A stretch of 64,000 nt of DNA from an uncultured Veillonellaceae bacterium (GTDB taxonomy: Bacteria > Bacillota > Negativicutes > JARBTT01), in contig CAWDTA010000002.1 of NCBI GenBank assembly GCA_963805085.1, positions 192,001-256,000 of the forward strand, given 5' to 3'. Numbering within the stretch: position 1 is the stretch's first letter; each line of letters begins with the position of its first letter. Position numbers and translations under genes: made by a program. Below are positions 338 to 15,909 of this stretch, piece after piece. The notes under the pieces are model-generated. The model saw only the letters and a list, made by a program, of their open reading frames with translations. It ran no database searches and had not been told where the DNA came from.

Positions 338-1315
338 TTAGTGAGTTGAAACCTCAACTGTAGAACCATCTATCACTTTTCCAGCAACAACTTTATTGGA
401 ACTTATATTTTTCACACGAATCACGTTACCTTCTCTACCATCTTGCAACGCTTGGCCCGATGTTTTTACCACAATACCGTTCACATTTGATATGATATTG
501 ATCATCGCCAATTGTTTGATAATGATTGGTTTCTCTAGCATATATGTATTCAGTGGCGTTCCATTTTGCAAGATTCGTCTTGTTTCCAAGCCAAGGACTG
601 TATCAATATTCGTTATATACCCCGGGCTAAGCTTACTCGTATCTAACTTTTCTAAATGCAAATCGTCTCTAGTCACTATATGCTTGACTGGCAATGTTTG
701 TCCGACAACTGCTACTTGTTCGTAGACCCGCACTTTGAAACGAACAGTAGACTTATTATATAGTCGATCATCAATATAGATATTTACCACCGTATTCGTT
801 GGCACATTATATTTGATACCATAAGGTAAAGTAACCTCAAATGTTAACTTACCATCTGGCACGATTACCGCATTTGGCAAATCAATTCCATCGACATGAT
901 ATTCTTTCGCATCACTTTTAGAATTTACTTGTTCATTGATATAACTTTTCGCAAGTCCAGCAATCATTTCACTAGATATCGTCTGTGCTTTCGTTGTTAT
1001 GGTAACCGGCTCTGCCACATTCCATACAATATCCGTATAATTACCACCAGCCCCCGCTAAGCGAGCACCAAGCAGTTCATTTGTCAATATAACGCTATTG
1101 CCAGGATCCGCTGCATTACCTATTTTTAATTGTTTTAGCTCGTAAATACGATTGGCATCTTCCCCGGAAATTGTTGCAATATCACCAAGTAATATATCTG
1201 GACCAGAAATTTCCACTTTATCATAAGTCGTTATTTCAATTGGTGAAGCAATCACGAGACTTGGCAATAGCATAAAAAGCATCGCAAATACCAATACTAT
1301 TTTTTTCATCATCAA
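338..1315 (-). CDS. flgA: Flagellar P-ring formation chaperone FlgA
   Basis: Signal peptide; C-terminal SAF/ChapFlgA motif GQALQDGREGNVIRVKN; position between flgG and flgH. Confidence 0.9.
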   Translation of the reverse strand: MMMKKIVLVFAMLFMLLPSLVIASPIEITTYDKVEISGPDILLGDIATISGEDANRIYELKQLKIGNAADPGNSVILTNELLGARLAGAGGNYTDIVWNVAEPVTITTKAQTISSEMIAGLAKSYINEQVNSKSDAKEYHVDGIDLPNAVIVPDGKLTFEVTLPYGIKYNVPTNTVVNIYIDDRLYNKSTVRFKVRVYEQVAVVGQTLPVKHIVTRDDLHLEKLDTSKLSPGYITNIDTVLGLETRRILQNGTPLNTYMLEKPIIIKQLAMINIISNVNGIVVKTSGQALQDGREGNVIRVKNISSNKVVAGKVIDGSTVEVSTH

Positions 1316-2275: not shown

Positions 2276-3025
2276 TTAAACAGTACCAACTTGATTTACA
2301 GCTTTATCAAGTAAACTATCTTGCGTAGTTACAGCCTTGGAATTTGCCTCGTAAGTTCTATATCCATTGATTAATTTAACCATTTCTGATACAACATTTA
2401 CATTTGACATTTCTAGGCTACCTTGTTCTAATTTTCCTGTTGCTGGAGCTGTCGGTTCATTTGGCGGCGCTACATATAAATTATTGCCCTCTTTTGTTAA
2501 TCGTTTATCACTACTAAACTCAACAAATCCCAAAGTTCCAACCGTTTGATTGTCCACCACAACGTCGCCTTTAGCACCGATGGTCACATTGGTACCATCC
2601 GGAATTCGAATGGGACGACCCTTCTGATCCAAAACTCTTGAACCACCTTCTGTTACTAGGTCACCAGCAGATGACCGAACAAAGGAACCTTCACGCGTGT
2701 AACGTATACCATTCGGTGATTCAACAACGAAGTAACCATTCCCTTCAATTGCGACATCATATTTATTGCCTGTTTGGCGTGTCGCACCTTGTTCATGGAT
2801 GGTTGCGATCTCATCCACTCTAGAGCCTCTGCCCAAGCCGCCAATATCAGGTGTTACTTGTCCATCATTAATGCGTTTTAATAATACGGCCTCAAATTCG
2901 GCGGTAACAGTTTCATCTTTTTTATAGCCTACGGTGTTCACATTTGCTAAATTGTTGGCAATAACATCAGTGCGAAGTGATTCTGTCACCATACCTGATG
3001 CTGCCGTATAAAGTCCGCGTAACAT
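2276..3025 (-). CDS. flgF: Flagellar basal-body rod protein FlgF/FlhO-like
   Basis: ANNLANVNTVGYK, YTREGSF, LEMSNVNVVSEMV rod-protein motifs; upstream of flgG. Confidence 0.8.
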   Translation of the reverse strand: MLRGLYTAASGMVTESLRTDVIANNLANVNTVGYKKDETVTAEFEAVLLKRINDGQVTPDIGGLGRGSRVDEIATIHEQGATRQTGNKYDVAIEGNGYFVVESPNGIRYTREGSFVRSSAGDLVTEGGSRVLDQKGRPIRIPDGTNVTIGAKGDVVVDNQTVGTLGFVEFSSDKRLTKEGNNLYVAPPNEPTAPATGKLEQGSLEMSNVNVVSEMVKLINGYRTYEANSKAVTTQDSLLDKAVNQVGTV

Positions 3026-3057
3026 AAACGAGCACCTCCAATAAATAATTTTATAGA

Positions 3058-4086
3058 TTAAGACATACTATTTGTTCTTAATGTTGTTAAACTATCTTCT
3101 AATTTATCAATAGAATCTAGTGCTTTTCCTGTACCCAACGCAACACAAGACAATGGATCTTCTGCTAAATATGTAGGAATACCAGTTTCTTTTTGAATCA
3201 ATTTATCTAAGCCAAATAACAATGAACCGCCACCAGTCATAACGATACCACGATCCATAATATCTGAAGCAAGTTCTGGTGGAGTATCTTCAAGTACTTT
3301 TTTTACACATTGTACAATGCGAGTTACAGGTTCATTAAGTGCTTCGCAAGTTTCATTGACTTCCATTTTTATTGTTTTAGGCAAACCAGTTAATAGGTCA
3401 CGACCACGCACTTCTAAAGACCCCTTACGCGCATCCAAGATCGCCGTGCCGATATTGATCTTTATTTCTTCGGCAGTACGCTCGCCGATCATAATATTAT
3501 ATTCTTTTTTTACATAACGAACGATAGCTTCATCAAACTTATCGCCGCCGATACGAAGTGATTCACTGATAACAATACCGCCTAAACTGATTACTGCAAC
3601 GTCGGTTGTACCACCACCAATATCAACCACCATCGAACCATATGGTTCAGAAATTTCTAACCCTGCACCAAGTGCTGCTGCCAATGGTTCTTCTATTAAA
3701 TAAGTTTTACGAGCACCAGCTTGCACCGCTGCTTCTAATACTGCACGTTTTTCTACAGTAGTAACACCTGATGGGATGCATACCATGATACGTGGTTTAA
3801 ATAAGAAACTTCTACCTGCTACTTTTTCAATAAAGTGGCGAAGCATACTTTCTGTCGTATCATAGTCAGCAATAACGCCTTCACGAAGTGGACGAATCGC
3901 TACGATATTACCTGGGGTACGACCAAGCATACGACGTGCCTCTTCCCCAATTTCTAGCACTTTGTTCGTGTCACGATCAATTGCTACAACGGATGGCTCT
4001 CTAAGCACAATTCCTTTACCTTTTATGTAAACTAAAACATTGGCTGTACCTAAATCGACACCAATATCCATCGACATTCCAAACAT
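3058..4086 (-). CDS. mbl: MreB-like rod shape-determining protein (Mbl position)
   Basis: [20 protein letters not shown]; conserved spoIIID-mbl-flhO/flhP synteny. Confidence 0.9.
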
Positions 4087-4214
4087 GAATAATCCCCTTC
4101 CAAAACTGCAATATACTCTTCATATTATTTTTGTTATATTTTATCCGCATACTATTATGCTCAACATGCTTTATTCTACATTTTTCAATTAAATCCTCTA
4201 TTTTAAACTTAATT

Positions 4215-4352
4215 CTAACATTTTTTATATTTTTTTCTTGTTGCTTCTCCGCCCCGAATATGGCGTTCTGCTTTATTCTCTTCTAATATTACTCTAATCT
4301 TTGCCGCTAACCTTTTATTGATAAGAGGCAATCGTTCAATCATATCTTTATG
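4215..4352 (-). CDS. spoIIID: spoIIID 3' half (codons 38-82), separated from its 5' half by the inserted element
   Basis: Manual translation HKDMIERLPLINKRLAAKIRVILEENKAERHIRGGEATRKKYKKC*, the conserved SpoIIID C-terminus (ERHIRGGEAT); lies directly upstream of mbl. Confidence 0.95.
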   Translation of the reverse strand, partial: HKDMIERLPLINKRLAAKIRVILEENKAERHIRGGEATRKKYKKC

Positions 4353-4377
4353 GAACGATTAACCAAAAATGAACGGT
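4342..4377. repeat. att junction next to spoIIID 3' half (core 4342-4352 + attP arm 4362-4377)
   Basis: Arm ACCAAAAATGAACGGT is a 15/16 inverted match to 13293-13308. Confidence 0.85.
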
Positions 4378-4479
4378 CACACGAAGGGGTTAATGCTCTT
4401 ATTTTCAAAGATCATTAACCCCACCTATAGTACTTATATTTTATTACAAAACTTACTGTTTAAAAATAGGTATGGTGCA

Positions 4480-4692
4480 CTATTTTTCAATATACTTAAT
4501 ACACTTTTCTGCTAAAAACTTTACAATACCATTTGCTTGCCTATTTTCATAAAAATCTACCATTAACGTATTGAATTCTAGTATGTCCTCTACCTTGATA
4601 TTAAATACACCGTAACCTGCATTAACTAATATACCATTTGCCATTAGGCGAGCAGTTCGTTTATTGGCATTCCAATAAATTACTCCAAACAT
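4480..4692 (-). pseudogene. C-terminal remnant of a Fic/Doc-family gene
   Basis: Begins at partial Fic motif WNANKRTARLMAN; N-terminal part with catalytic His absent. Confidence 0.6.
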
Positions 4693-4702
4693 AAAAGACT
4701 TA

Positions 4703-5335
4703 TCACCGACTTAATTTTTTATCAATATAATCCTCCATGATACCACGATATTCGGCGTTTTTCCCCTCTACCTTTAAATTTTCCTTTACCTTAAGCAAGA
4801 TTGCCTTTGTCCATTGCCCCTGAGCTTTGTAATGTGCTAATTTATTGCGAAGTGTCTCTAACGCAGCTTTACGATTTGTCTTTAAGAAAACACCTACACA
4901 ATCACAATTCAAATTCAAGGTCACATCTAAATCATTATTCGTTTCCCTATCTTCAGAGTAAATTGTTCCGTCTGATTTATATTTTATCAGCTGAACTTTA
5001 GAACGATCAAGTGGATTTATGGTTAACACAACATTCCCACGATGTGCATCACAAGTCATATCCTCTTTTCGGTGCCCCCTATGACCTAAACAAACGCCTA
5101 GCATATTACGATAATCTAACTCTAGATTTTCATCTACCGTCTTCGGAATATAGTGCTCTATAGTCATAGTATCCTTAGCAATTCTTCTCATGCAATATGC
5201 ACATATATGACCTTGCTCAATTAATAAAGCTTCTCGAACATTCTCTTTTTGTGAAAATCCATCATAATAAGCACCATTTTGTTGTTTGTATTTTATCAAG
5301 CTTGCTGGCTCTTGTCCCTTCTCTATAAAAATCAT
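4703..5335 (-). CDS. HNH endonuclease, Septu PtuB / TIGR02646-like
   Basis: EQGHICAYCM..IEHYIPK..YRNMLGVC..TCD HNH/Zn motifs; immediately downstream of an ABC-type ATPase. Confidence 0.85.
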   Translation of the reverse strand: MIFIEKGQEPASLIKYKQQNGAYYDGFSQKENVREALLIEQGHICAYCMRRIAKDTMTIEHYIPKTVDENLELDYRNMLGVCLGHRGHRKEDMTCDAHRGNVVLTINPLDRSKVQLIKYKSDGTIYSEDRETNNDLDVTLNLNCDCVGVFLKTNRKAALETLRNKLAHYKAQGQWTKAILLKVKENLKVEGKNAEYRGIMEDYIDKKLSR

Positions 5336-5339
5336 GATG

Positions 5340-6611
5340 TCAATCTCCCAATATAGTTGTTTCTAAATCCAACGTAATTTGGGCTTTTACTATATCAGGA
5401 TCATTGTCGTCCAACTCACCCATTAACTCTTCTAAAATAACTTTGGCTTTCCTATACTCTTCTTCGTCAATTGCTTGGTAGAAACCATCAAATTTATCTT
5501 TTACTTCTTTTGCACGTTCACCACTATGTTGAAAATAGGATAACACATCATTTACTTGATACCCATAAGCAGATGGTCTATACTCAATATCCATATCATT
5601 CTTAATGGTAATTAGTTGCTCATTTTTACAAGAAGCAATAATCAAGGGCGAATGCGTTGTAGTAATAAATTGTGTGCAAGGAAACGTTGTTTTTAACGCA
5701 TCAACAATTTTCCATTGCCATTTAGGATGTAAATGCAAGTCCAGTTCATCAATGAGAACAATCCCCGGCGTTTTACTGGTTACTTCTTTACGTAAATTTG
5801 GATTTAACACCGCCATACGATATGCGATATCCATAACCATCCAAATTACCGATTGATAACCAGAACTTAATAAGTGAATAGGAATGTTTTCTTCTTCATT
5901 TATACTATATACCAATTGACCTGTTCTCTTATGAAACCGTACTCCTTTGACCTGTTTTTCACACATAATACTCATAAAAGTAACAATTGCTTCTTTTACT
6001 GCTTCATACTCAGAAATTTTTTTATCTTCTTGCCAAGAAATTTCCTCCATCCGTTTGCACCAATTTAGCAACATCTTTGCATTAGATTCCTCTGCTAAGC
6101 AATCTATATAACCAACACTTCTAGTGTAATTCTCCCGAAATACATCTGTTGCTTTTTCCCGTTTTTGCGCCCACATTCTAGCAGCACTTTGATAATTAAT
6201 CAACGGTACTATTTTTTCGGTATCATCCAGCATTTCTTTACTAGCTCTGCAAATATCCCTAGGTTCTACTGTTGTCCTGCCTCTTAAAGTTTTCTTTTGC
6301 CTACCCCATGCAAATTCTTGATTATCTAAAATAGCCGTACATTCAACTTTTACTGGATATTCTTGTTTTATATTAATCGATCCATCACCAGTTAGCGTAC
6401 TTTCCAATCGAACTTCATCTTGGCTAATGTGTTTTGTATTAATTTCATTAACTCCCGCTAAAAAGCCACCTAACCCAACTGATATTGCTTCCAATATAGA
6501 TGTCTTTCCTACACCGTTATCCCCAATTAATATATTAAATCCAGCTTTAAAATTTAGAGCTACATCTTTAATTCCTTTAAAATTTTTAATCAGAATTGAC
6601 TGTAATTGCAA
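5340..6611 (-). CDS. ABC/AAA_21-type ATPase, Septu PtuA-like
   Basis: Walker A GDNGVGKT, signature LSSGYQ, Walker B/D-loop VLIDELDLHLHPKWQ, H-loop TTHSP. Confidence 0.85.
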   Translation of the reverse strand: MQLQSILIKNFKGIKDVALNFKAGFNILIGDNGVGKTSILEAISVGLGGFLAGVNEINTKHISQDEVRLESTLTGDGSINIKQEYPVKVECTAILDNQEFAWGRQKKTLRGRTTVEPRDICRASKEMLDDTEKIVPLINYQSAARMWAQKREKATDVFRENYTRSVGYIDCLAEESNAKMLLNWCKRMEEISWQEDKKISEYEAVKEAIVTFMSIMCEKQVKGVRFHKRTGQLVYSINEEENIPIHLLSSGYQSVIWMVMDIAYRMAVLNPNLRKEVTSKTPGIVLIDELDLHLHPKWQWKIVDALKTTFPCTQFITTTHSPLIIASCKNEQLITIKNDMDIEYRPSAYGYQVNDVLSYFQHSGERAKEVKDKFDGFYQAIDEEEYRKAKVILEELMGELDDNDPDIVKAQITLDLETTILGD

Positions 6612-6829
6612 ATTGACACCTCCTAACTATCAAATTTAACCACTATATATTAAACGTACATGTATAAGTAATCATTTTGGTACAAGTCTACGAACCATAT
6701 TTTCAAATACATATTTATACTTATACCCCAAACTACATAGTTTATATTCGTAATAACTATGTAAAATCCTTCATTTATACCGCTAATTTGGCTTATATAA
6801 GTAAATGCAATAATATTAGTCCTAAACTA

Positions 6830-6868
6830 AAAGAACCTATTGCACAATTTTTAAAAGCAATAGGTTCT
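6830..6868 (-). terminator. Probable intrinsic terminator of the recombinase gene
   Basis: Hairpin AGAACCTATTGC...GCAATAGGTTCT just past the stop codon, followed by a T-run on the minus strand. Confidence 0.6.
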
Positions 6869-6874
6869 CTACGT

Positions 6875-8410
6875 TTATATAGCAGCCGCATGGGTAATCT
6901 CCAAATCGGAAAATAATTTCAAATAAACTTGGAGCTCACCTTCTACGGTCACAACAATTTTATCAATGACCTTTCTCAGCAAAGCATTATCAATAAGTTC
7001 TGCATTTAGCACGGCTTGAATACTACCACAATACTTACGAACCACTTCGTCAATCCGACTTAAAATAGAAGTATTCCCTCTGATAGCACTAAGTTCATTC
7101 TCGTATTTGGCTATTGCCAAATTTAATTCAGTGGTTCGTTCTTTGAGTTCATCAATCGTAATAGCGTCAACTTCAAACATTTCTGTTTGTTTTGATTTTG
7201 CTTTCTTGAGCCTTGCCAATTCAGCCAATATAAAAGGTTCCGACAGTTCATTATCTTGCGGTTTATATTGTTTTCTAAATTCGGTTATTGTTTGCTTTAA
7301 CAGCTTGTCCTTCGATGATACCAACCCGCCCAAATAGCTTTTAATCTCCTCGATCAGTTCTTTTTCATCGATAATTGTATGATTGTTACAGAAATCCATG
7401 CCGTTAGCGTTCCTACCAGAACAGCACCACCGTATGTATTCATTAACGTACTTTCTCTGTGTCCTTCTGAAGCTATAACCGCAATCACCACATTTGATAA
7501 GAGTACTAAAACAATATTTGTTTGATTGACGTTTATTGGTTATACGAAAATTTTCTGTTCGCTCAGCGAGCAAAGATTGTGCTTTAGCAAAAAGTTCCTT
7601 ATCAATAATAGTAAGTTCTGGCTTGTCTACAATAAATTGTTTATCAACGCTATTCTTCACTCGTTCACCAGTCAAAAAATCCTTAACCGATTCTTTGCCA
7701 TTGATAACCTTACCTGTATAAAGCGGATTGGTTAGTATCGTAGAAATTGCTTGCTGTGACCACCGGCATTTACGTTTTGTTACTAACCCTTCCTTATTTA
7801 ATAGCTGTGAAATCTTGTTGGCACCATGCCGCTGATTTACATAGTAATCAAATATGCGTTTTACAACCTTTGACTCTACTTCATTTATTGTTAGATTAAA
7901 ATATTCACCTACTGTTTTATCATAACCATAGACAATATTAGGAACCCGCCCCTTTTCGGCATTACGTTTTTTACCAAACTTTACACGTTTAGAAAGATTA
8001 GCCGATTCTTCCTGAGCAACAGCTGCCAATATTGTCAAGGTCAATTCACCATCATTGCTAGACATATTGGCCGTTACGAAGCGGCAATCAATATTTAATG
8101 ACTTTAGTTTACGAATGCTCTGGAGAAAGTCTACGACGTTACGCGCAAGCCTAGATACATCTTTTACAAATACGCATTCAAACTTTCTTCGCTGAGCATC
8201 AAGCATCATACGGTTGAACTCTTTACGATTTTTTAACTTAGTCCCACTAATCCCTTCGTCAGCATACAACTCAACAAGCTCATAATTATTTTTAACAGCA
8301 TACTCTTCAAAAAATTCTTTCTGTGCTTGCAGACTTAATAGCTGCTCGTCCTTTTCAGTTGATACCCTACAGTAAGCGGCAATTTTTTGTTTTCCATCAC
8401 TACCAACCAT
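6875..8410 (-). CDS. Large serine recombinase (integrase/excisionase, SpoIVCA/SprA-type architecture)
   Basis: Catalytic AAYCRVST, YADEGISGT, KDVSRLARN; recombinase domain; Zn ribbon CGDCG..CCSG..C; coiled coil; RBS GGAGG before ATG 8410 (ORF track start 8431). Confidence 0.95.
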   Translation of the reverse strand: MVGSDGKQKIAAYCRVSTEKDEQLLSLQAQKEFFEEYAVKNNYELVELYADEGISGTKLKNRKEFNRMMLDAQRRKFECVFVKDVSRLARNVVDFLQSIRKLKSLNIDCRFVTANMSSNDGELTLTILAAVAQEESANLSKRVKFGKKRNAEKGRVPNIVYGYDKTVGEYFNLTINEVESKVVKRIFDYYVNQRHGANKISQLLNKEGLVTKRKCRWSQQAISTILTNPLYTGKVINGKESVKDFLTGERVKNSVDKQFIVDKPELTIIDKELFAKAQSLLAERTENFRITNKRQSNKYCFSTLIKCGDCGYSFRRTQRKYVNEYIRWCCSGRNANGMDFCNNHTIIDEKELIEEIKSYLGGLVSSKDKLLKQTITEFRKQYKPQDNELSEPFILAELARLKKAKSKQTEMFEVDAITIDELKERTTELNLAIAKYENELSAIRGNTSILSRIDEVVRKYCGSIQAVLNAELIDNALLRKVIDKIVVTVEGELQVYLKLFSDLEITHAAAI

Positions 8411-8452
8411 CGTATAACTTCCTCCCTTCATTCAAAATTGAAACAATTTTAA

Positions 8453-8614
8453 TTAAGCTGAATGCCTAACATCATAACCGATATCATCATCACCAGTCTT
8501 ATCATTGATTTCTCTATTAACTTTATTTATAATCGCTGAAGCTAAAATTTTAGGTAGATACTTGTCCACCGCATCTTCACTATTAGGATTAACAAACGTA
8601 ATTTTAAGGCTCAT
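8453..8614 (-). CDS. Small 53-aa protein upstream of the recombinase, candidate recombination directionality factor
   Basis: Strong RBS GAGGGGGAG; MSLKITFVNPNSEDAVDKYLPKILASAIINKVNREINDKTGDDDIGYDVRHSA*; co-oriented, 42 bp before LSR start. Confidence 0.65.
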   Translation of the reverse strand: MSLKITFVNPNSEDAVDKYLPKILASAIINKVNREINDKTGDDDIGYDVRHSA

Positions 8615-8812
8615 AGTAAACTCCCCCTCACATATTAAAAAATTGATTAGCCACCAACTATAGTTTTGTATAGTAAATCTTATTGTTATGACACCAAAAA
8701 TATAACCATAAAATTTTACCTACATAAGAAATACCCATAATTCAAAACCCTTGCTATGGTTCCGAACAAAAAAGGCTCCACGTCAGACCACGCGAAGCCG
8801 TGAATTTACTAA

Positions 8813-8873
8813 TGGCAGAGAGGGATGGATTCGAACCCTTGGCACCTTGCGGTACAATTGATTTGGAGTAAAC
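8813..8873 (-). pseudogene. Degenerate 3' fragment of a tRNA-Ser
   Basis: Minus strand has long variable arm GTACCGCAAGGTGC, T-loop GGTTCGAATCC and a GCCA end; no 5' acceptor or D arm. Confidence 0.7.
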
Positions 8874-9205
8874 TATCTTTTCTAAAATTGACTTATTCCA
8901 CATAAAAAGCAATGCCATAAGAAGAAACAGATAACTATTATATATCATCTATTAATTGTTATTGTTGGATAAATATTGAATAATTTGTCAAGCGATGTTA
9001 ATATAAAAGTGCAACTAGCATTGCTTAACACAAGAGATAAACTAAGGGAGCTTATCCTTTTAGGGACAAAACATGGTCGTTATTTCCAATTTGTTTCCTA
9101 TTAGCCATGCCCTCCGTCAAAGGGATAAAATTTATCTTATAAGTCATAATATGATATTTCATTCAATTATAGATCATATATCCAAATGGTATATAGAATA
9201 AAGAG

Positions 9206-10174
9206 GTGGTTCATATATTTTTTTTAATCGGGATAGTATCAACATTTATTATGCTTTCATTACTTCCAAATACTTCTTTTGGTCGTAATAGAAGCATCAC
9301 GGCATTGTTTATGTTCGTTTATTCTTCATTGTATTTTTTCATTATTCAGTATGGATTAACTGTAAATAATTCTTTTAAAATTCCTCTCTTTTTTGTAGCA
9401 TTAATTTTAATTTTATATTTATCAACGGCCGATAGGTATATTAATCTAAAATTGGATTTAGATATGCTATTTAAAATTGTTTTGTTTATAATGATACCGA
9501 TAGTAGTATGTTTTTCGTTTCCAACCGCTAATAATCAATTTCACTTAATTGATATATTAATTGTTGCTTTTGTTTTTGGAATAAATCAATCACGTTTTAA
9601 TAAAACCACAATGTTATATCAAGAAAGCACAATTGAATTTTATGGATCGTCTACTACAGCTCATCTTCTAATTTTGTTTATTTTTCTGGGCTATAGGAAA
9701 ATTAATATCAATCTATTTTTCATTAATACAATGGATGCATGGGGATTAACTTTGGTAGTTACTTTTTTATGTTGTTTTTTCGCAATTTTTATTGGAGTAA
9801 AATTAAACTATCTTAGTTTTAATTTCAAAAAAGTTAAAACTAAAACTTTACTAATATTAACTATTTTTAATTTTTTTCATATAGCAATAGCAGAAGAAAT
9901 TATCTATAGAGGATTTGTCTATAATTATCTACGACAGTTCATCGGTGGAGGAGATTGGATACCACTGGTATTGACAACTTTATTATTTGGGTGTCACCAT
10001 ATTAGCTTTGGTGGCAGAAGAATGTTTGTACTTTCTTCTATAGCTGGTTTCTTTTATGGTTTAATATATATGCTTACAGGAAACCTATTAACCTCGGCAA
10101 TTATTCATACTATTACTAATATGGTTTGGCGATTATTTTTTGTTATAAGATCTAATGTAGAGGCGCAAAAATGA
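9206..10174 (+). CDS. CPBP (CAAX/Abi) family intramembrane metalloprotease
   Basis: Multi-TM; motifs AEEIIYRG, FGCHH, HTITN. Confidence 0.85.
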   Translation: MVHIFFLIGIVSTFIMLSLLPNTSFGRNRSITALFMFVYSSLYFFIIQYGLTVNNSFKIPLFFVALILILYLSTADRYINLKLDLDMLFKIVLFIMIPIVVCFSFPTANNQFHLIDILIVAFVFGINQSRFNKTTMLYQESTIEFYGSSTTAHLLILFIFLGYRKININLFFINTMDAWGLTLVVTFLCCFFAIFIGVKLNYLSFNFKKVKTKTLLILTIFNFFHIAIAEEIIYRGFVYNYLRQFIGGGDWIPLVLTTLLFGCHHISFGGRRMFVLSSIAGFFYGLIYMLTGNLLTSAIIHTITNMVWRLFFVIRSNVEAQK

Positions 10175-10361
10175 TCCTGGTTTTGGTTCTATTATTATAG
10201 TGGGGAATAATAGCAATAATTACTTTTTACAATGATATTAAAAATAAATTTAATTATTGGTATTACAATGAAAGCCATGAATTCAGGAACTGCAATACTG
10301 AACCATTCGATAAAAAATGAAATTTTTAAAATATCAATGTGCATCAAAAATATAAGATACT

Positions 10362-10493
10362 CTATCCATAAGACGTATCCTTACCGCTCAATTTCTCAAT
10401 AAATACTTCTTCCGCTCTGAGCTCTTGCATAATTACTTCTTGCCGGATAGTATTTTGATCCAGCGAACTTACTCTTACATAACCGATTTTCAT
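10362..10493 (-). pseudogene. Truncated small serine resolvase (43 aa)
   Basis: MKIGYVRVSSLDQNTIRQ...EVFIEKLSGKD then stop; RBS GGGGAG. Confidence 0.8.
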
Positions 10494-10518
10494 ATGCTAC
10501 ACTCCCCATTAAAACAGA

Positions 10519-10629
10519 AAAAGTGTTCCACAAAGTCTACTTTGATTATGGGCTAGCCCAAAAATCATTTTTCGACTTATGTGGAACACTTTTATTTTGT
10601 ACCATTAAGGTATACCTTATTGGTGCACT
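10519..10629. repeat. res-site-like nested inverted repeats upstream of the resolvase remnant
   Basis: AAAAGTGTTCCACA..TGTGGAACACTTTT; inner TGGGCTAGCCCA; ACCATTAAGGTATACCTTATTGGT. Confidence 0.55.
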
Positions 10630-10636
10630 CATCTTA

Positions 10637-11821
10637 TTAATTTATATGCCTGTTATCATTAACTCGCTTTATGTACCGATTAAATTGAGGTACAGTAAAG
10701 TCCACTTCACCATAGCGGGGAGCATAGATAAACCCCTTATAAATCAATTGCCCTCTGACTGGCGAAATACTTTGCACACCTGTATTCATTTTGCTAGCTA
10801 TTTCGGCAATCGTACATGGTAATTCACCACATTCAACCATAGCAAGCATAAATTGCTTTTCCTTTGGTGTTGCTCGATCATACCGCACCTTGAAAAAGCT
10901 GTCATCCAAACTTCTCTCAAAATCCGGATAAGCTGCCTTCACAGATGCTAGATCAATAGTCTTATCTTTAATAAACGCCCAAACCTGTTTTCCATATTCC
11001 TGAAGAAAATAAGGATATCCTTCGGTAATTCTTAGTATTTCACCAATAGCGTCATCACTAAACGTTACATCCATTTTTTTAGCAGGCTCTACTAACGCCA
11101 ATTTAGCCGCCTCTGCTTCTAAAGAACCAATCGAAATAAAGCTAAATAGCCGTTCAGCATAGGATTTTATATCGCCAGCAATCTTGGTCACCTTCGGCAA
11201 GCCTGCTGAAATTAACGTCACAGGCAACCCCTTTTGATTTGCTCGATGCAAGGCAGTAATTAATGCTTCAAATTCATCATCTTTTAAATATTGTATTTCA
11301 TCAATAAATAGACAAACTGAACTTTCGCTATTTTTTGCAAGCGTTCCCATGGATACTAATAATTCCGTAAGATCATTAGAAAAATTTCCTGTATCCGATA
11401 CCCCTACTGCTGCATCCACTTCATCATTTATCCCTACACTTATTTCCCCCTCTGGAGAGTAAGTAATTTTAAAAGCTTTTAATACTGACATTGCTTTTTG
11501 AAAATAATTTTTTGCTTTTGCCTTAACGCTCATTTGTTTTATTAATTTTTGTATATGTAAAGAAATAGAGACTTTAAAAGACGAACGCTCTGACACTTCA
11601 ATGTGTTCATATAGGACATCATACTCGTCAGCAATCTCTTCAATTTTGTTTAAGAGTACGGTTTTCCCAACACCACGCAAGCCATAGTAAACCACCGAAC
11701 GAGCAGGATAGCCATGTGCCACATAAGCAATAATTTCTTTTGCTGCCTCAATGGTATCATCACGCCCAGCTAAATAATTTGGTACTAAACCCGCTCCCGG
11801 AGTATAAGGATTTATTATCAT
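10637..11821 (-). CDS. AAA-family (AAA_16-like) ATP-binding protein with C-terminal wHTH-like region
   Basis: NPYTPGAG..LAGRD, Walker A GLRGVGKT, Walker B LFIDEIQ, GYPYFLQ. Confidence 0.8.
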   Translation of the reverse strand: MIINPYTPGAGLVPNYLAGRDDTIEAAKEIIAYVAHGYPARSVVYYGLRGVGKTVLLNKIEEIADEYDVLYEHIEVSERSSFKVSISLHIQKLIKQMSVKAKAKNYFQKAMSVLKAFKITYSPEGEISVGINDEVDAAVGVSDTGNFSNDLTELLVSMGTLAKNSESSVCLFIDEIQYLKDDEFEALITALHRANQKGLPVTLISAGLPKVTKIAGDIKSYAERLFSFISIGSLEAEAAKLALVEPAKKMDVTFSDDAIGEILRITEGYPYFLQEYGKQVWAFIKDKTIDLASVKAAYPDFERSLDDSFFKVRYDRATPKEKQFMLAMVECGELPCTIAEIASKMNTGVQSISPVRGQLIYKGFIYAPRYGEVDFTVPQFNRYIKRVNDNRHIN

Positions 11822-11931
11822 ACAATCACCTTCTTGTCATGATTATTACCGCAATTATATCTTTATATTCGATAAATTTCAATATTTACGCTAAAAAATG
11901 CTTATATCTTTATTGATACACCCATTCAATT

Positions 11932-13161
11932 CTATAATTTTGCTACTACATCTAAATTCACACTATAAACATTCATTTTACCACTTTGCTTAACACTCAG
12001 CATATCTTTAGGTATTTGCTTAATCCAACCACGAATTGTAGATGGACTTAATTCAGCAATTTCTACTAGATTTTGAATACTAACACCTTCATCATCAAAC
12101 AAAGTACTTTGCACCAAAGCATGCAATATATTTCGGATTGGTTTATCTCCATTTGCATATTTTTCAATTTTTTCTTTATAAAAATTATACTGTTCGCCTT
12201 TTCCTTCAATAATAATACATAAATTTTCGATAGTTTCTTCTATAAGTTCCAAAAATCCAATAACAAAAGGAGTTAAATCACCTTTATTTTTATAATCATT
12301 CACTTCCTTAAACATATCATAATATTTTTTAAGCTTATTTTTAATCGTATACGACAAACTAAAACCAACTACTGATTCTAATTGCTGATTTAATAGATAG
12401 CTACTAATGAATCTTGCCATTCTGCCGTTGCCATCATAAAAAGGATGTATATAACCAAACATATAGTGAAATACTGCTATATTCACGAAATCGTTTAATT
12501 TATTATTGTTTAACATATCTAGTGCAACTGTCATAGCTGTAATAATTTTGGCTTCGGGATACATACCCTTATGAATCACCTTTTGGCTTGATGAAATTAT
12601 TTCAACAATTTCTTTTCTAAAAATATCACCATCTGGAGCATTATCTGGATTATCAGCTTTTACTTCTGCTAAAACGAATTCATCATAAAGTTTTCTAATA
12701 TCCTGACAGGATTTTAAAGTAAATTCCTGTCCATATGACAACATCATATATTTTTGTACCAAACCATACAAACGCTTCTTTTCCTTATTTTCTGTTTTAT
12801 CATCAATTAGCTCTCTGATTTCTTTACGTGTACTGTGAACACCCTCAATCTCGTTAGTCAGCTGAATTTCATCTACAATACACTTTAACGTAAATTGAGT
12901 CAAAGCAATCGGCGGTACACTTTTGGTTATTTTTAAAAGTCTCTTATCCAATTTCAAAATACTGGTTAATAAATTTAAAATTTCTAAATTCATAACAACA
13001 AACGCCCGATTTTCACCAATTGTAAAATCATAACGATAAGTAAACTCGTTATTAAATCTTTCTTTATATGTAGTTTCATAGGCTTCATTATTTTTATAAA
13101 ACAATTTATTTAAAGATTTATACAACACTTGACTCACATCCTTTTTGTCATTATACTTCAC
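11932..13161 (-). CDS. Fic-family protein with C-terminal HTH
   Basis: Canonical HPFYDGNGRMAR; TNEIEG inhibitory-like motif; C-terminal ELSPSTIRGWI HTH. Confidence 0.9.
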   Translation of the reverse strand: MKYNDKKDVSQVLYKSLNKLFYKNNEAYETTYKERFNNEFTYRYDFTIGENRAFVVMNLEILNLLTSILKLDKRLLKITKSVPPIALTQFTLKCIVDEIQLTNEIEGVHSTRKEIRELIDDKTENKEKKRLYGLVQKYMMLSYGQEFTLKSCQDIRKLYDEFVLAEVKADNPDNAPDGDIFRKEIVEIISSSQKVIHKGMYPEAKIITAMTVALDMLNNNKLNDFVNIAVFHYMFGYIHPFYDGNGRMARFISSYLLNQQLESVVGFSLSYTIKNKLKKYYDMFKEVNDYKNKGDLTPFVIGFLELIEETIENLCIIIEGKGEQYNFYKEKIEKYANGDKPIRNILHALVQSTLFDDEGVSIQNLVEIAELSPSTIRGWIKQIPKDMLSVKQSGKMNVYSVNLDVVAKL

Positions 13162-13182
13162 TCAAACAAGCAAGTAAACAAC

Positions 13183-13240
13183 AAATAAAACTATTTACTT
13201 ATTAATTTATGATTATTTTAATAAGTAAATAGTTTTATTT
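13183..13240. promoter_or_regulatory. 23-bp perfect inverted repeat upstream of the fic gene (operator or hairpin)
   Basis: AAATAAAACTATTTACTTATTAA (13183-13205) / TTAATAAGTAAATAGTTTTATTT (13218-13240). Confidence 0.55.
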
Positions 13241-13292
13241 TAAATTTTCTTATTATATTTTACCCATTTTAATATGATTAAATTCAATTTTC

Positions 13293-13319
13293 ACCGTTCA
13301 CTTTTGGTATATCTTTATG
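13293..13319. repeat. att junction next to spoIIID 5' half (attP arm 13293-13308 + core 13309-13319)
   Basis: ACCGTTCACTTTTGGT followed by ATATCTTTATG. Confidence 0.85.
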
Positions 13320-13430
13320 AACAGTACTTTTACTAACACCAAACACCACCGCTGCTTGCCGAACTGTATGTTTACTCTGCAAAATATGATCACAAATATC
13401 TAAGACACGTTTACGAATATATTCCTTCAT
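13309..13430 (-). CDS. spoIIID: spoIIID 5' half (codons 1-40; reads into the element and stops at 13284)
   Basis: RBS AGGGGG; MKEYIRKRVLDICDHILQSKHTVRQAAVVFGVSKSTVHKD, the SpoIIID N-terminal HTH. Confidence 0.95.
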
Positions 13431-13458
13431 TACTCTGCCCCCTAAAGCCATTTGCTAA

Positions 13459-13490
13459 CATGTATATGCAAACAATTAGGCAAGCAGAAC
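13459..13490 (-). promoter_or_regulatory. Possible SigE-type promoter of spoIIID
   Basis: Minus strand TTCTGCT-N14-CATATACAT; -10 resembles SigE cATAcanT, -35 weak. Confidence 0.35.
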
Positions 13491-13637
13491 AATGTAAAAA
13501 TTATACGATGATATAAAATAGAATGTGCGCGGTTATACCATAAAAATGGCTACACTAAAAATAAATTTTACATGTAGCCGCTATATATTTTTTTCTATAT
13601 GTTCCATACAACCAGCTCATTTTTAACAGGACTTTTA

Positions 13638-14723
13638 TCACTTGCTTCTTTTTCTACCTATTTTTATTTCAGCACCGATCCATAGCATAATAGGAATAAC
13701 AACCTGAAAGGGTAGAACATAATACTGAAAAACATCTGTAAAATTGAACAGCTCCATTACACTACTAAATTCAAAAATACTGATTGCCAACATTAAAATA
13801 CTTAGTATAAACAACACCGATCCATTTTTTTTAATGTTAAATAGTTTTTTGACTCCTTTTACCGCAGCTAATACACAAATTGATATTTTGGCAATCCCAG
13901 CTAATATAAAGTTATACGATATAATCATTTCAATTCTCGAAAGAAAATCTCCTATATTGATCATCCGCGCTGCTCTATAGGATGGAAAGTATGAATTTTC
14001 CACCATAGGAACACCCAAAACCATAATGCCAAGCAAAAACACAAGCACCAAAACTACCGTTGCTATGAAAATACCATACAAATAAATTTTATAGGGATTA
14101 TCACTCTTTTTAATTGAATCTGCGAATGTTAAAAATAGAACTGTTCCACCAAAGGTAGTCGTAAATATTCTTAAGCTTGCGTTTCCAAGGGCTGTAACAC
14201 TATGCTCCATAACTGGCAAAACATTAGAAATTTTTATTTCTGTAGTAGATAAAATCATGATATATAACAATATGACTAAATACAAAGGTAGTACAAACAT
14301 TGCCCACTTTCCCAAAGTTTCTATTCCACTAAAGGCGAGATAACCAGCGACAACAAGTAGTGTTATCATTATAGGAAGCTCTGGGGTTTCCTGTAAAGTC
14401 ACTATTTTAACAAATTCTGAAATAAGTCTGATTACAATAGCACTCAGATGAATTGCATACCAGGTCATCAAAGCAATGATTATTTTTCCGATTATATCTC
14501 CAAATACCGCTTGGGCTATATCGTACAAATCCATCTCTGGAAACAGACTGATAATCCTAGCATATACAAGTACAAGGATGCTGCCAGCAGCTAATGCAAG
14601 CAGGAGTGCTATCCAAGCATCCTGCCCTACTCCCCAGCTGACGCCCATTACAGCACTGCTCCCAAATAAAAACAATACAATCAAAAAAATAGTTTGCCGC
14701 ATTGATATCATTTCTCTTTGCAT
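13638..14723 (-). CDS. gerKB: Spore germination receptor B subunit (GerAB/KB), copy 1
   Basis: 10-TM APC-like; GQDAWIA, IGDFLSRIE. Confidence 0.85.
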   Translation of the reverse strand: MQREMISMRQTIFLIVLFLFGSSAVMGVSWGVGQDAWIALLLALAAGSILVLVYARIISLFPEMDLYDIAQAVFGDIIGKIIIALMTWYAIHLSAIVIRLISEFVKIVTLQETPELPIMITLLVVAGYLAFSGIETLGKWAMFVLPLYLVILLYIMILSTTEIKISNVLPVMEHSVTALGNASLRIFTTTFGGTVLFLTFADSIKKSDNPYKIYLYGIFIATVVLVLVFLLGIMVLGVPMVENSYFPSYRAARMINIGDFLSRIEMIISYNFILAGIAKISICVLAAVKGVKKLFNIKKNGSVLFILSILMLAISIFEFSSVMELFNFTDVFQYYVLPFQVVIPIMLWIGAEIKIGRKRSK

Positions 14724-14766
14724 AACAATACCTCTTTCGTCTGTCGCTATCTCTACATTCGCCATA

Positions 14767-15909
14767 TCACTTCGTTAACCCAGTATTTATGATGACGAAT
14801 TCTGGTCTTACTTCAACTTCCATTGTTTGAATATAATACTCCCAATTTTCTTTTAACTGATACCATAATGTTGGATTACTCTTATGAATCATTGCTCCAA
14901 ATCCGAAAATATCACAACCAAATTCTGTTTGTCCTTTTTTTACCACCTCATCCATTCTCTGTAAAAAATTCAAAGTAACTGCTGCTTTAATTTTTTCTAC
15001 ATTACTTTCTTTCAAGACATCAATATCAGTACCAATTTCACCGATCGTTGCCGTGGTCTTAATATCTAAAAAAACTTTAAGACGCTTTCCATCGTAAGAA
15101 TAGGATCTTTTCGTCTTATTTTTTGCTATTTCAAGCGCAAAATTATCCTGATTATCTTGATTTAAAGAAAATTTGGTAATACCTCCAGCAATTTCATCAA
15201 TCGCAAAAAGATAATACTTTGTTTCTTCTGGCGACAAATACCCTTGCAACTTATCTTCCTTAAAAATTGCAGATCCATTTACCTCTACCACTTTTTTATT
15301 TTTATTAGAAATACAGTGAACAGCAGGCAAAACTAAAGCTGCTTCCTTACCTCCGTGTAGAATATCAAAAACCTGATAATTTTCAATCTTTTTTGTAGAG
15401 GCTGTTAGTTTTCGGTCACTACTTATAATTTTTTCAAGTTCTTCAGAAATGATTTTGTCGTCTGTACCACTAGCTGCCAAAATTTCTTTTGCGGTTTTTT
15501 CTTGAGAAATAACTGGGATCGCCGTTTCTCTTGTCTCTGCATCTCGAATAAACCAGTCTAAACTAGGCTTTATTCCCTCTTCTCTAGCAATCTGATTGCT
15601 AATCACAATAATCTTTACATCACTTACATATAATTTTTTCGACAATCTTTTTTTCGCATTTCTAACTGCTTCAAATATCGTTTTTCCTTCCGATTCAACA
15701 AGCTGAGATTTACCAGTACCTTCCTTACTTGCCGCAGATAGATCTAGGATTTCTATTGTTAACTGATAATTATCGTTGTCTGTCTTTCTGTCGATCGCCA
15801 TACCTGTAACAATCGAAATTTTATTTAAGCCCCGATAATTCCAACAGCCACTGAGCGGAATACATACACCAATGATTAAGAAAATACTGATTAGCTTTTT
15901 AATCATCAT
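14767..15909 (-). CDS. gerKC: Spore germination receptor C subunit lipoprotein, copy 1
   Basis: Lipobox LSGCWNY; IVTGMAID; DIFGFG. Confidence 0.9.
   Translation of the reverse strand: MMIKKLISIFLIIGVCIPLSGCWNYRGLNKISIVTGMAIDRKTDNDNYQLTIEILDLSAASKEGTGKSQLVESEGKTIFEAVRNAKKRLSKKLYVSDVKIIVISNQIAREEGIKPSLDWFIRDAETRETAIPVISQEKTAKEILAASGTDDKIISEELEKIISSDRKLTASTKKIENYQVFDILHGGKEAALVLPAVHCISNKNKKVVEVNGSAIFKEDKLQGYLSPEETKYYLFAIDEIAGGITKFSLNQDNQDNFALEIAKNKTKRSYSYDGKRLKVFLDIKTTATIGEIGTDIDVLKESNVEKIKAAVTLNFLQRMDEVVKKGQTEFGCDIFGFGAMIHKSNPTLWYQLKENWEYYIQTMEVEVRPEFVIINTGLTK

Follow-up and report, generated by a model that had tools for sequence, protein, structure and literature searches.

SpoIIID is an early mother-cell transcription factor of sporulation, and in the DNA considered here its gene, spoIIID, is split in two by an 8,967-bp element that encodes a large serine recombinase (LSR) and a 53-residue protein, called orf53 below, which is a candidate recombination directionality factor (RDF). 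The DNA in question (the window) is a stretch of 64,000 nucleotides from an uncultured Veillonellaceae bacterium (assembly GCA_963805085.1, contig CAWDTA010000002.1, positions 192,001 to 256,000). The element is a gene-splitting element of a known type, whose spoIIID member is newly defined here with its attachment sites, its LSR and a candidate RDF. Among the described systems, skin interrupts sigK and is served by the LSR SpoIVCA in Bacillus subtilis and by CD1231, together with the RDF CD1234, in C. difficile (PMC5025042). In C. difficile the RDF is made only in the mother cell and thereby times skin excision, and in both species excision depends on SpoIIID (PMC5025042). The element described here resembles skin in being an LSR-mediated interruption of a mother-cell sporulation regulator; unlike that of skin, its excision cannot depend on SpoIIID, since spoIIID itself is the interrupted gene. 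Another described element, gin, lies in gerE of Bacillus cereus ATCC 10987, where the LSR GirC and the 42-aa RDF GirX act on it and where both excision during sporulation and RDF activity were shown (PMC5595907). Like the present element, gin is a non-prophage element in the gene of a small mother-cell regulator, it encodes an LSR with a tiny accessory protein without known motif, its att sites are imperfect inverted repeats, and its crossover was predicted at the dinucleotide that ends the short shared core on the 3' side. The two differ in target gene and in host class, and excision and RDF function were shown for gin and are proposed here.

The closest report concerns the same gene, which in Ruminiclostridium cellulolyticum is interrupted by a skin-like element (Galperin et al., 2022, bioRxiv 10.1101/2022.02.25.481979). 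The passage that mentions it gives the interruption only, with no att sites, crossover, recombinase family, accessory gene or distribution. It was the sole mention of an interrupted spoIIID found in the literature, in which the att sites, the recombinase and the excision of a spoIIID element were not found either; Table S3 of the same work may hold more. Apart from the target gene, a link to the window is provided by a homologue of orf53 that is annotated as hypothetical in R. cellulolyticum, and in the same genus R. sufflavum has an LSR 64% identical to that of the window and adjoining a spoIIID half. The element described here comes from a different class (its closest matches carry titles from the Negativicutes/Sporomusaceae) and has other cargo. 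This recombinase may already be included in one of the large published catalogues of LSRs and att sites.

The two spoIIID halves (Table 1) are the only SpoIIID matches that a profile search found in the genome, and their bit scores (58.9 and 69.5) add up to about the score of intact genes in relatives (n=15, 120–141 bits). When one core copy joins the halves at His38, an uninterrupted spoIIID reading frame results, as an in-frame skin-like interruption requires; the SpoIIID proteins of relatives start at the same MK(E/D)YI. Directly downstream lies mbl/mreB (3058–4086), and a spore-germination permease gene is found upstream. Both halves are under strong purifying selection as judged from the split alleles, for which the nonsynonymous rate (dN) is 0.06–0.15 and the synonymous rate (dS) is saturated. 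The segment that contains the site, SKSTVHKD..ERLP, occurs in every intact relative (15 of 15), each time with CA at the site, and it is because this invariant protein segment is encoded there that the site sequence is conserved; a conserved coding segment as attB in turn accounts for a wide host range and for fixed crossover bases. Scans of 3000–15000 with Rfam and for tRNA genes returned no matches; attB therefore does not lie in a gene for a tRNA or another RNA, and no known RNA is encoded in the stretch without open reading frames (ORFs) at 8615–9205. Upstream of spoIIID, a sigma-E-type promoter was looked for by eye and none was recognisable.

Read directly, the junctions consist of two copies of an 11-bp direct repeat, ATATCTTTATG, at 4342–4352 and 13309–13319, and the element runs from 4353 to 13319. 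Close to its ends stand two 16-bp arms, ACCAAAAATGAACGGT (4362–4377) and ACCGTTCACTTTTGGT (13293–13308), which match each other as reverse complements in 15 of 16 positions. In the rejoined ends the arms are 20 bases apart (the 11-bp core plus positions 4353–4361) and the midpoint of the resulting 52 bp is the TG that ends the core, which on the minus strand reads CA and belongs to the codon of His38 (numbered from the MKEY start at 13430). An initial annotation of this stretch had already described the 52-bp rebuilt site with its arms and spacer and had placed its centre at the TG within the His38 codon; direct reading and translation bear out each of these statements. The site has the form known for attP of LSRs, that is, about 50 bp of imperfect inverted repeat centred on a non-palindromic dinucleotide held in common with attB, and its symmetry is better at the TG/CA (21 of 28 positions) than at the next-best centre (14). 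The two junctions are an intact attL and an intact attR, and the rejoined ends give a symmetric attP of about 52 bp.

The arms are rare as sequences. With R at the differing base and up to 2 mismatches allowed, the arm pattern has 3 matches in the window against 0.09 expected in shuffled sequence, and two of them are the arms themselves; in the whole 4.2-Mb genome, with up to 1 mismatch, only the two arms and one further site with 1 mismatch were found. The third match in the window (476–491, minus strand, 2 mismatches) lies 3.9 kb outside the element and is probably due to chance. As inverted repeats the ends do not stand out by length, since the AT-rich 9 kb holds 362 inverted pairs, among which the terminal pair (I8, arms 4354–4377 and 13293–13316, 24 nt, 83%) ranks eighth; its significance comes from its position at the exact break of a split gene and from its conservation in the family, length alone being insufficient. 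The longest inverted pair of the region is a different one, at 13172–13251, a 34-nt inverted repeat (85% complementary, 12-nt loop) between the start of a Fic gene and the attP arm. The ends are also reflected in base composition, with 27–36% G+C within the element vs 39–43% in the flanks, which points to a foreign origin, and in metagenome contigs of the runs X1 and X4 that stop exactly at 4352.

The position of the crossover was addressed by comparing 12 related elements for which both junctions were available. attL and attR share the CA at the His codon in 12 of 12 pairs, and no other dinucleotide is shared throughout. In gene orientation, the base 5' of the CA differs between attL and attR in 8 of the 12 pairs (including the window, whose core begins at the CA) and the base 3' of it in 5, one of these being a pair whose core ends at the CA; in 4 pairs the CA is the sole identity, with mismatches on both sides. 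The same CA is the best centre of symmetry in 11 of the 12 rebuilt attP sites, with scores of 12–25 of 28, the exception being the locus L032. If the cut position is homologous across the family, it can only be the CA, that is, the TG of the plus strand of the window, as the initial annotation had predicted together with an attP geometry of the LSR type. The comparisons strongly support this prediction, and integration by the LSR with crossover at the CA/TG is considered very likely. A further parallel was found with the LI integrase, in whose attB the outer motif, bound by the zinc-ribbon domain, lies 5 bp closer to the centre than in attP (PMC3783163). In the present family the outer segment of the attP arm, compared with the half of attB that lies 3' in the gene, fits best at a 5-bp inward shift (mean 6.5 of 11 matches vs about 3 elsewhere), so one attB half-site follows the LI/A118 model and the second half does not.

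The insertion at His38 recurs in many genomes. Among 41 genomes (this one and 40 relatives), spoIIID was found in 20 and is split at the same place in 5 of these. A wider survey of 301 genomes of the class found 60 with spoIIID above the family cut-off, of which 50 have it whole, 9 in two halves and 1 as a 5' half only; in each of these 10 split cases out of 60 the insert sits in the sole spoIIID match above the cut-off. All 5 inserts examined encode a homologous LSR, and the four others are 58–82% identical to that of the window. When GTDB species genomes were scanned with the LSR alignment, 160 relatives were confirmed, and the 80 best of these were analysed as loci. At an LSR identity of about 40% or more, 48 of the 51 loci adjoin a spoIIID half that starts at His38; the three exceptions are L041, L078 and L080, the last two on contigs of about 5 kb. 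The more distant LSR loci of the same set have no spoIIID half (0 of 29). The record titles include Negativicutes (Pelosinus and Selenomonadales, the closest among the matches listed), Ruminiclostridium, Oscillospiraceae, Lachnospiraceae, Intestinibacillus and others. The LSR has the direction of spoIIID in 46 of the 48 loci; in the two others (L046 and L050) it is antisense to spoIIID and adjoins the 3' half, and the insert of L050 is only about 3.8 kb long. Identities of the LSR and of the host protein Mbl are incongruent, Mbl being 91% and the LSR 58% identical in G019 and 80% and 82% in G036, which indicates that elements moved between hosts; strict vertical inheritance was considered and rejected on the same figures. 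On a branch of gut Clostridia (L053, positions 1700–1798, and similar loci from L054 to L081) the LSR reading frame crosses the attachment site, its last codon containing the crossover CA and its stop, TAA, coming from the host-side spoIIID sequence, so that the C-terminus and the stop of the recombinase depend on the state of the site.

The LSR of the window is a single-copy gene. Its active-site serine is S23, and the motif YCRVST is invariant in an alignment of five sequences. It aligns distantly with SprA/YokA, the integrase of SPbeta (E 5e-13, residues 33–495), an element of spsM that is excised with the help of the RDF SprB (PMC4191935, PMC11722253); sequence identity is low, and unlike SPbeta the present element is not a prophage. 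Across the LSR clade, orf53 stands directly upstream of the LSR and has a conserved core of about 35 aa. Its 83 homologues are all annotated as hypothetical and none has a Pfam family; searches with the sequence itself in Pfam, PADLOC and PDB chains gave no match, nor was there similarity to any characterised RDF. The predicted complex of orf53 with the LSR scores 0.67, vs 0.00 for the best of 3 controls; among solved complexes 116 of 157 attained this mark, and among mismatched pairs 2 of 215. At least 79% of contacts are common to the runs, with a predicted local distance difference test (pLDDT) of at least 63 for the partner. The predicted interface involves LSR residues 353–388 and 462–509, which flank the presumed coiled coil. 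In the SPbeta integrase, SprB binds DNA-binding domain 2 (DBD2) and the base of the coiled coil (PMC11722253), and it is to this site that the predicted orf53 contacts correspond. The region between residues 366 and about 497 of the LSR aligns with the SPbeta integrase and flanks the predicted interface. An RDF would be expected at the base of the LSR coiled coil, and orf53 is predicted to bind there.

A possible clue to the timing of expression is a promoter-like motif upstream of the orf53-LSR pair (Table 1). Its -35-like box contains the ATA that marks the -35 box of sigma-E promoters (PMC3789822). The -10-like box was compared with the consensus -10 sequence. By eye, G(T/G)CATA occurs at a similar distance upstream of orf53 in 10 of the 17 related elements shown. 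Scans for sigma-70 promoters and terminators gave counts in the region equal to those expected from shuffled sequence and were uninformative. In the loci of G019 and Intestinibacillus, orf53 and the LSR follow directly after the spoIIID 5' half in the same direction; it may be speculated that the spoIIID promoter might drive them there.

The following mechanism is proposed. Very probably the LSR inserted the element into the coding sequence of spoIIID, with strand exchange at the CA of His38, and the same LSR, with orf53 as an RDF bound to the base of its coiled coil, would excise it by recombination of attL with attR. Excision would most likely take place in the sporulating mother cell, restoring spoIIID there and leaving the element in the forespore genome, as for skin, SPbeta and gin. 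An excision that is linked to sporulation and uses orf53 as RDF is considered somewhat more likely than not, its timing in the mother cell being drawn by analogy from these systems; the account as a whole, an LSR element in spoIIID excised by the LSR and orf53, likely in the mother cell, is the best explanation overall and a probable one. There is a hint of the joined form: one contig of the metagenome run X3 (depth 2.6) links 4341 to 13309, with 44 letters on its shorter side and 11 letters that fit both sides, and the integrated form is present in the same run at a depth of 7.95. As for the hosts, Spo0A and SpoIVA are both present in G001, a genome of the same genus, and when the four other split-spoIIID hosts checked are added, all 5 genomes have Spo0A and 4 have SpoIVA (4 of 4 and 3 of 4 in the four hosts alone). 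In G019 and G034 the two genes are about 33–51 kb apart, a proximity that means that a single assembly gap might hide both.

Several observations weigh against this account. The joined contig of X3 was placed at 90% likeness in a metagenome and may stem from a related strain that never had the element. The four metagenome runs aligned yielded only contigs of relatives, with no joint of the excised-circle type among those listed; none of the listed sequencing runs contains half of the stretch or more, and no RNA run is listed for it. Spo0A_C, SpoIVA and a clear sigma-E have no match in this genome, whose assembly is 83% complete and in 5 contigs; an assembly gap is likely, and the ability of this organism to sporulate is presumptive. 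The purifying selection on the two halves may be older than the insertions, which could be recent and independent. In attB, no arm motif shifted by 5 bp is seen in the half that lies 5' in the gene. The orf53-LSR complex was predicted from alignments made for this analysis, and a solved integrase-RDF complex exists, so the pass may partly reflect likeness. The promoter-like motif is a weak, loose resemblance, with a spacing of 12 nt here vs 13–15 nt in relatives. Finally, the locus L032 (from a metagenome-assembled genome titled Bacillota bacterium) has lost an attP arm, and its truncated spoIIID 3' half ends after about 33 residues, which suggests that such elements can decay. In that locus unrelated sequence stands where the arm next to the spoIIID 5' half would be; an assembly error is possible.

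The alternative that survives best, although we consider it rather unlikely, is an active integrative island that uses the conserved spoIIID as a safe landing site, in which case excision would be sporadic or stress-induced and cells that keep the element could not sporulate. The incongruent LSR and host phylogenies, by which the element moves between hosts, would suit such an island, as would a cargo of defence genes and not of sporulation genes, a mother-cell promoter that amounts to a loose motif, and a joined contig in X3 that may reflect loss or absence at the level of the population. These arguments are opposed by the ten class genomes (of 60) that carry the insert in their sole spoIIID match above the cut-off, by the four other hosts checked, which keep Spo0A in every case and SpoIVA in three, and by intact gene halves with dN far below dS. 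Moreover, every studied LSR element in a mother-cell gene (sigK, spsM and gerE) is excised in sporulation (PMC5025042, PMC4191935, PMC5595907).

It is improbable that the locus is a dead relic, with spoIIID permanently inactive in a lineage past sporulation and with att sites and an LSR that have simply not decayed so far. The lack of Spo0A_C, SpoIVA and sigma-E matches in the genome, together with a sigK that is split too, would agree with a relic, and L032 gives an example of true decay of an arm and a gene half. Against a relic, the assembly is 83% complete, a genome of the same genus has Spo0A and SpoIVA, and one gap might hide both genes; in addition, there is no damage to the LSR, orf53, the arms (15 of 16) or either gene half, and the neighbouring gene encodes a spore-germination permease. 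The suggestion of the initial annotation that the sites are still maintained fits this state of the arms, the LSR and the gene halves. Still less credit is given to a crossover elsewhere in the 11-bp core than at the terminal TG: the window alone would permit any non-palindromic dinucleotide of the 11-bp identity, and its arms are imperfect, but CA is the sole dinucleotide that the 12 pairs have in common, it is flanked by mismatches in 4 of them, and it centres the symmetry in 11. A DDE-type transposon with terminal inverted repeats and a target-site duplication, which a direct repeat flanking the element and inverted repeats near its ends might recall, has a negligible chance of being the explanation, as the element has no transposase and only serine-type recombinases (Pfam), one arm abuts the direct repeat and 9 bp separate the other from it, as in a site centred on the TG and not in terminal repeats, the supposed duplication shrinks to 2 bp in relatives, and dozens of species have the insertion at the same codon of the same gene.

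Besides spoIIID, the sigK gene of the same genome is also split (G000:C5:700935-704380, loci L111 and L112, outside the window). Its two parts cover profile positions 2–147 and 140–226, are about 2.75 kb apart, and have a second, distantly related LSR between them (24% identity, opposite strand). Two successive mother-cell regulators, SpoIIID and sigma-K, are thus interrupted in one genome.

The remaining genes of the element are given in Table 1 with its sites. The cargo here appears to be mostly anti-phage genes, namely PtuA and PtuB of Septu, which are adjacent on the same strand and 4 bp apart, and a Fic protein of SoFic type; no phage structural genes are among the Pfam matches of the element proteins. 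The 70-aa ORF beside Septu was for a time considered a Fic fragment, an assignment that was dropped as no family search supports it. The LSR lies in the interior of the element, separated by 2,522 bp from the left core and by 4,877 bp from the right one, in agreement with the 2.5 and 4.9 kb noted by the initial annotation. In most relatives the LSR ends about 40–200 bp from the junction with the spoIIID 3' half, and the interior position here is due to a 2.4-kb block bearing Septu that lies between the two. In a variant from a groundwater metagenome (run X3, contig 17), more than 90% identical, 233 other letters take the place of 4498–6896 (Septu and the 70-aa ORF), and the G034 element retains only short PtuB fragments. 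Of the other cargo proteins, the AAA_16-type ATPase is 85% identical to a protein of the G034 element, and the Fic protein and the 43-aa recombinase remnant are, respectively, 72% identical to a protein of the G036 element and 69% identical to the start of a full-length 184-aa one in the same element. The end of the present element on the side of the 5' half has both its Fic gene and its small serine recombinase in common with the G036 element (26 kb; the shared part at L024:1282-3256); the Fic gene is whole here and in two ORFs in G036, and the recombinase is full length there and a remnant here. The module of orf53, LSR and att sites is thus fixed, and the cargo around it comes and goes.

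Table 1. Features of the split spoIIID gene and of the element within it (coordinates of the window)
Feature	Coordinates	Strand	Remarks
spoIIID 3' half, His38 to stop (4215-4217)	4215..4352	-	Pfam PF12116, E 3.6e-19, profile 37-80 of 82
Core copy, junction with spoIIID 3' half (attR, gene orientation)	4342..4352		TG at 4351-4352, predicted crossover
Element-side attP half-site	4353..4377		Includes 16-bp arm at 4362-4377
70-aa ORF, no family	4480..4692	-	No Pfam or PADLOC match; within the 4498-6896 block
PtuB, HNH nuclease of Septu	4703..5335	-	PADLOC PDLC00322, E 2.6e-67, full length
PtuA, ATPase of Septu	5340..6611	-	PADLOC PDLC00298, E 3.5e-169; Pfam AAA_15, AAA_23
LSR, 518 aa, same orientation as spoIIID	6875..8431	-	Pfam Resolvase (E 3.2e-34, profile 1-144 of 145), then Recombinase (PF07508, 2-102 of 102), then Zn_ribbon_recom (PF13408, 2-56 of 58)
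orf53, 53 aa, candidate RDF	8453..8614	-	21 bp upstream of LSR
Promoter-like motif upstream of orf53-LSR	8664..8692	-	-35-like box with ATA, then ATA-containing -10-like box
Terminator-like hairpin upstream of the promoter-like motif of orf53	8774..8799	-	10 pairs, 6 G-C, T-run; weak
CPBP / Rce1-like intramembrane protease	9206..10174	+	Pfam PF02517, E 7.8e-17
Small serine recombinase remnant, 43 aa	10362..10493	-	Pfam Resolvase N-terminus, E 4.6e-5
AAA_16-type ATPase	10637..11821	-	Pfam PF13191, E 2.8e-12
Fic-domain protein, SoFic-type defence candidate	11932..13161	-	Pfam Fic, E 1.4e-12; PADLOC SoFic, E 3.4e-34
Element-side attP arm adjoining spoIIID 5' half	13293..13308
Core copy, junction with spoIIID 5' half (attL, gene orientation)	13309..13319		TG at 13318-13319
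spoIIID 5' half, Met1-Asp40, reads through core	13309..13430	-	Pfam PF12116, E 7.2e-16, profile 1-39

What has been added to the initial annotation is the identity of the split gene as spoIIID, a large family of elements that occupies one codon, and orf53 as the likely directionality factor. The locus offers a complete and comparatively validated set for testing a new serine integrase as a genetic tool (LSR, attP of about 52 bp, attB, dinucleotide and candidate RDF), in which attB is fixed by a conserved protein segment. The family is common, with 10 of 60 spoIIID-bearing genomes in one class and many Clostridia, and annotation pipelines will often call spoIIID absent or a pseudogene in what may be sporulators. 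Around a fixed scaffold of recombinase and attachment sites, anti-phage cargo such as Septu and SoFic is swapped in and out. More tentatively, and with considerable doubt, orf53 might represent a new RDF family that co-evolves with an LSR clade dedicated to a single spoIIID codon, SpoIIID and sigma-K of this genome, each gated by its own LSR, might form a two-step rearrangement cascade with a first step that is independent of SpoIIID, and restriction of excision to the terminal mother cell might allow the elements to last as heritable, exchangeable vehicles of defence genes. spoIIID, which acts before sigK, gerE and spsM in the mother-cell programme, would join the sporulation genes that are under the control of excision, and, as skin excision needs SpoIIID in B. 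subtilis and C. difficile, regulation here would have to be wired differently.

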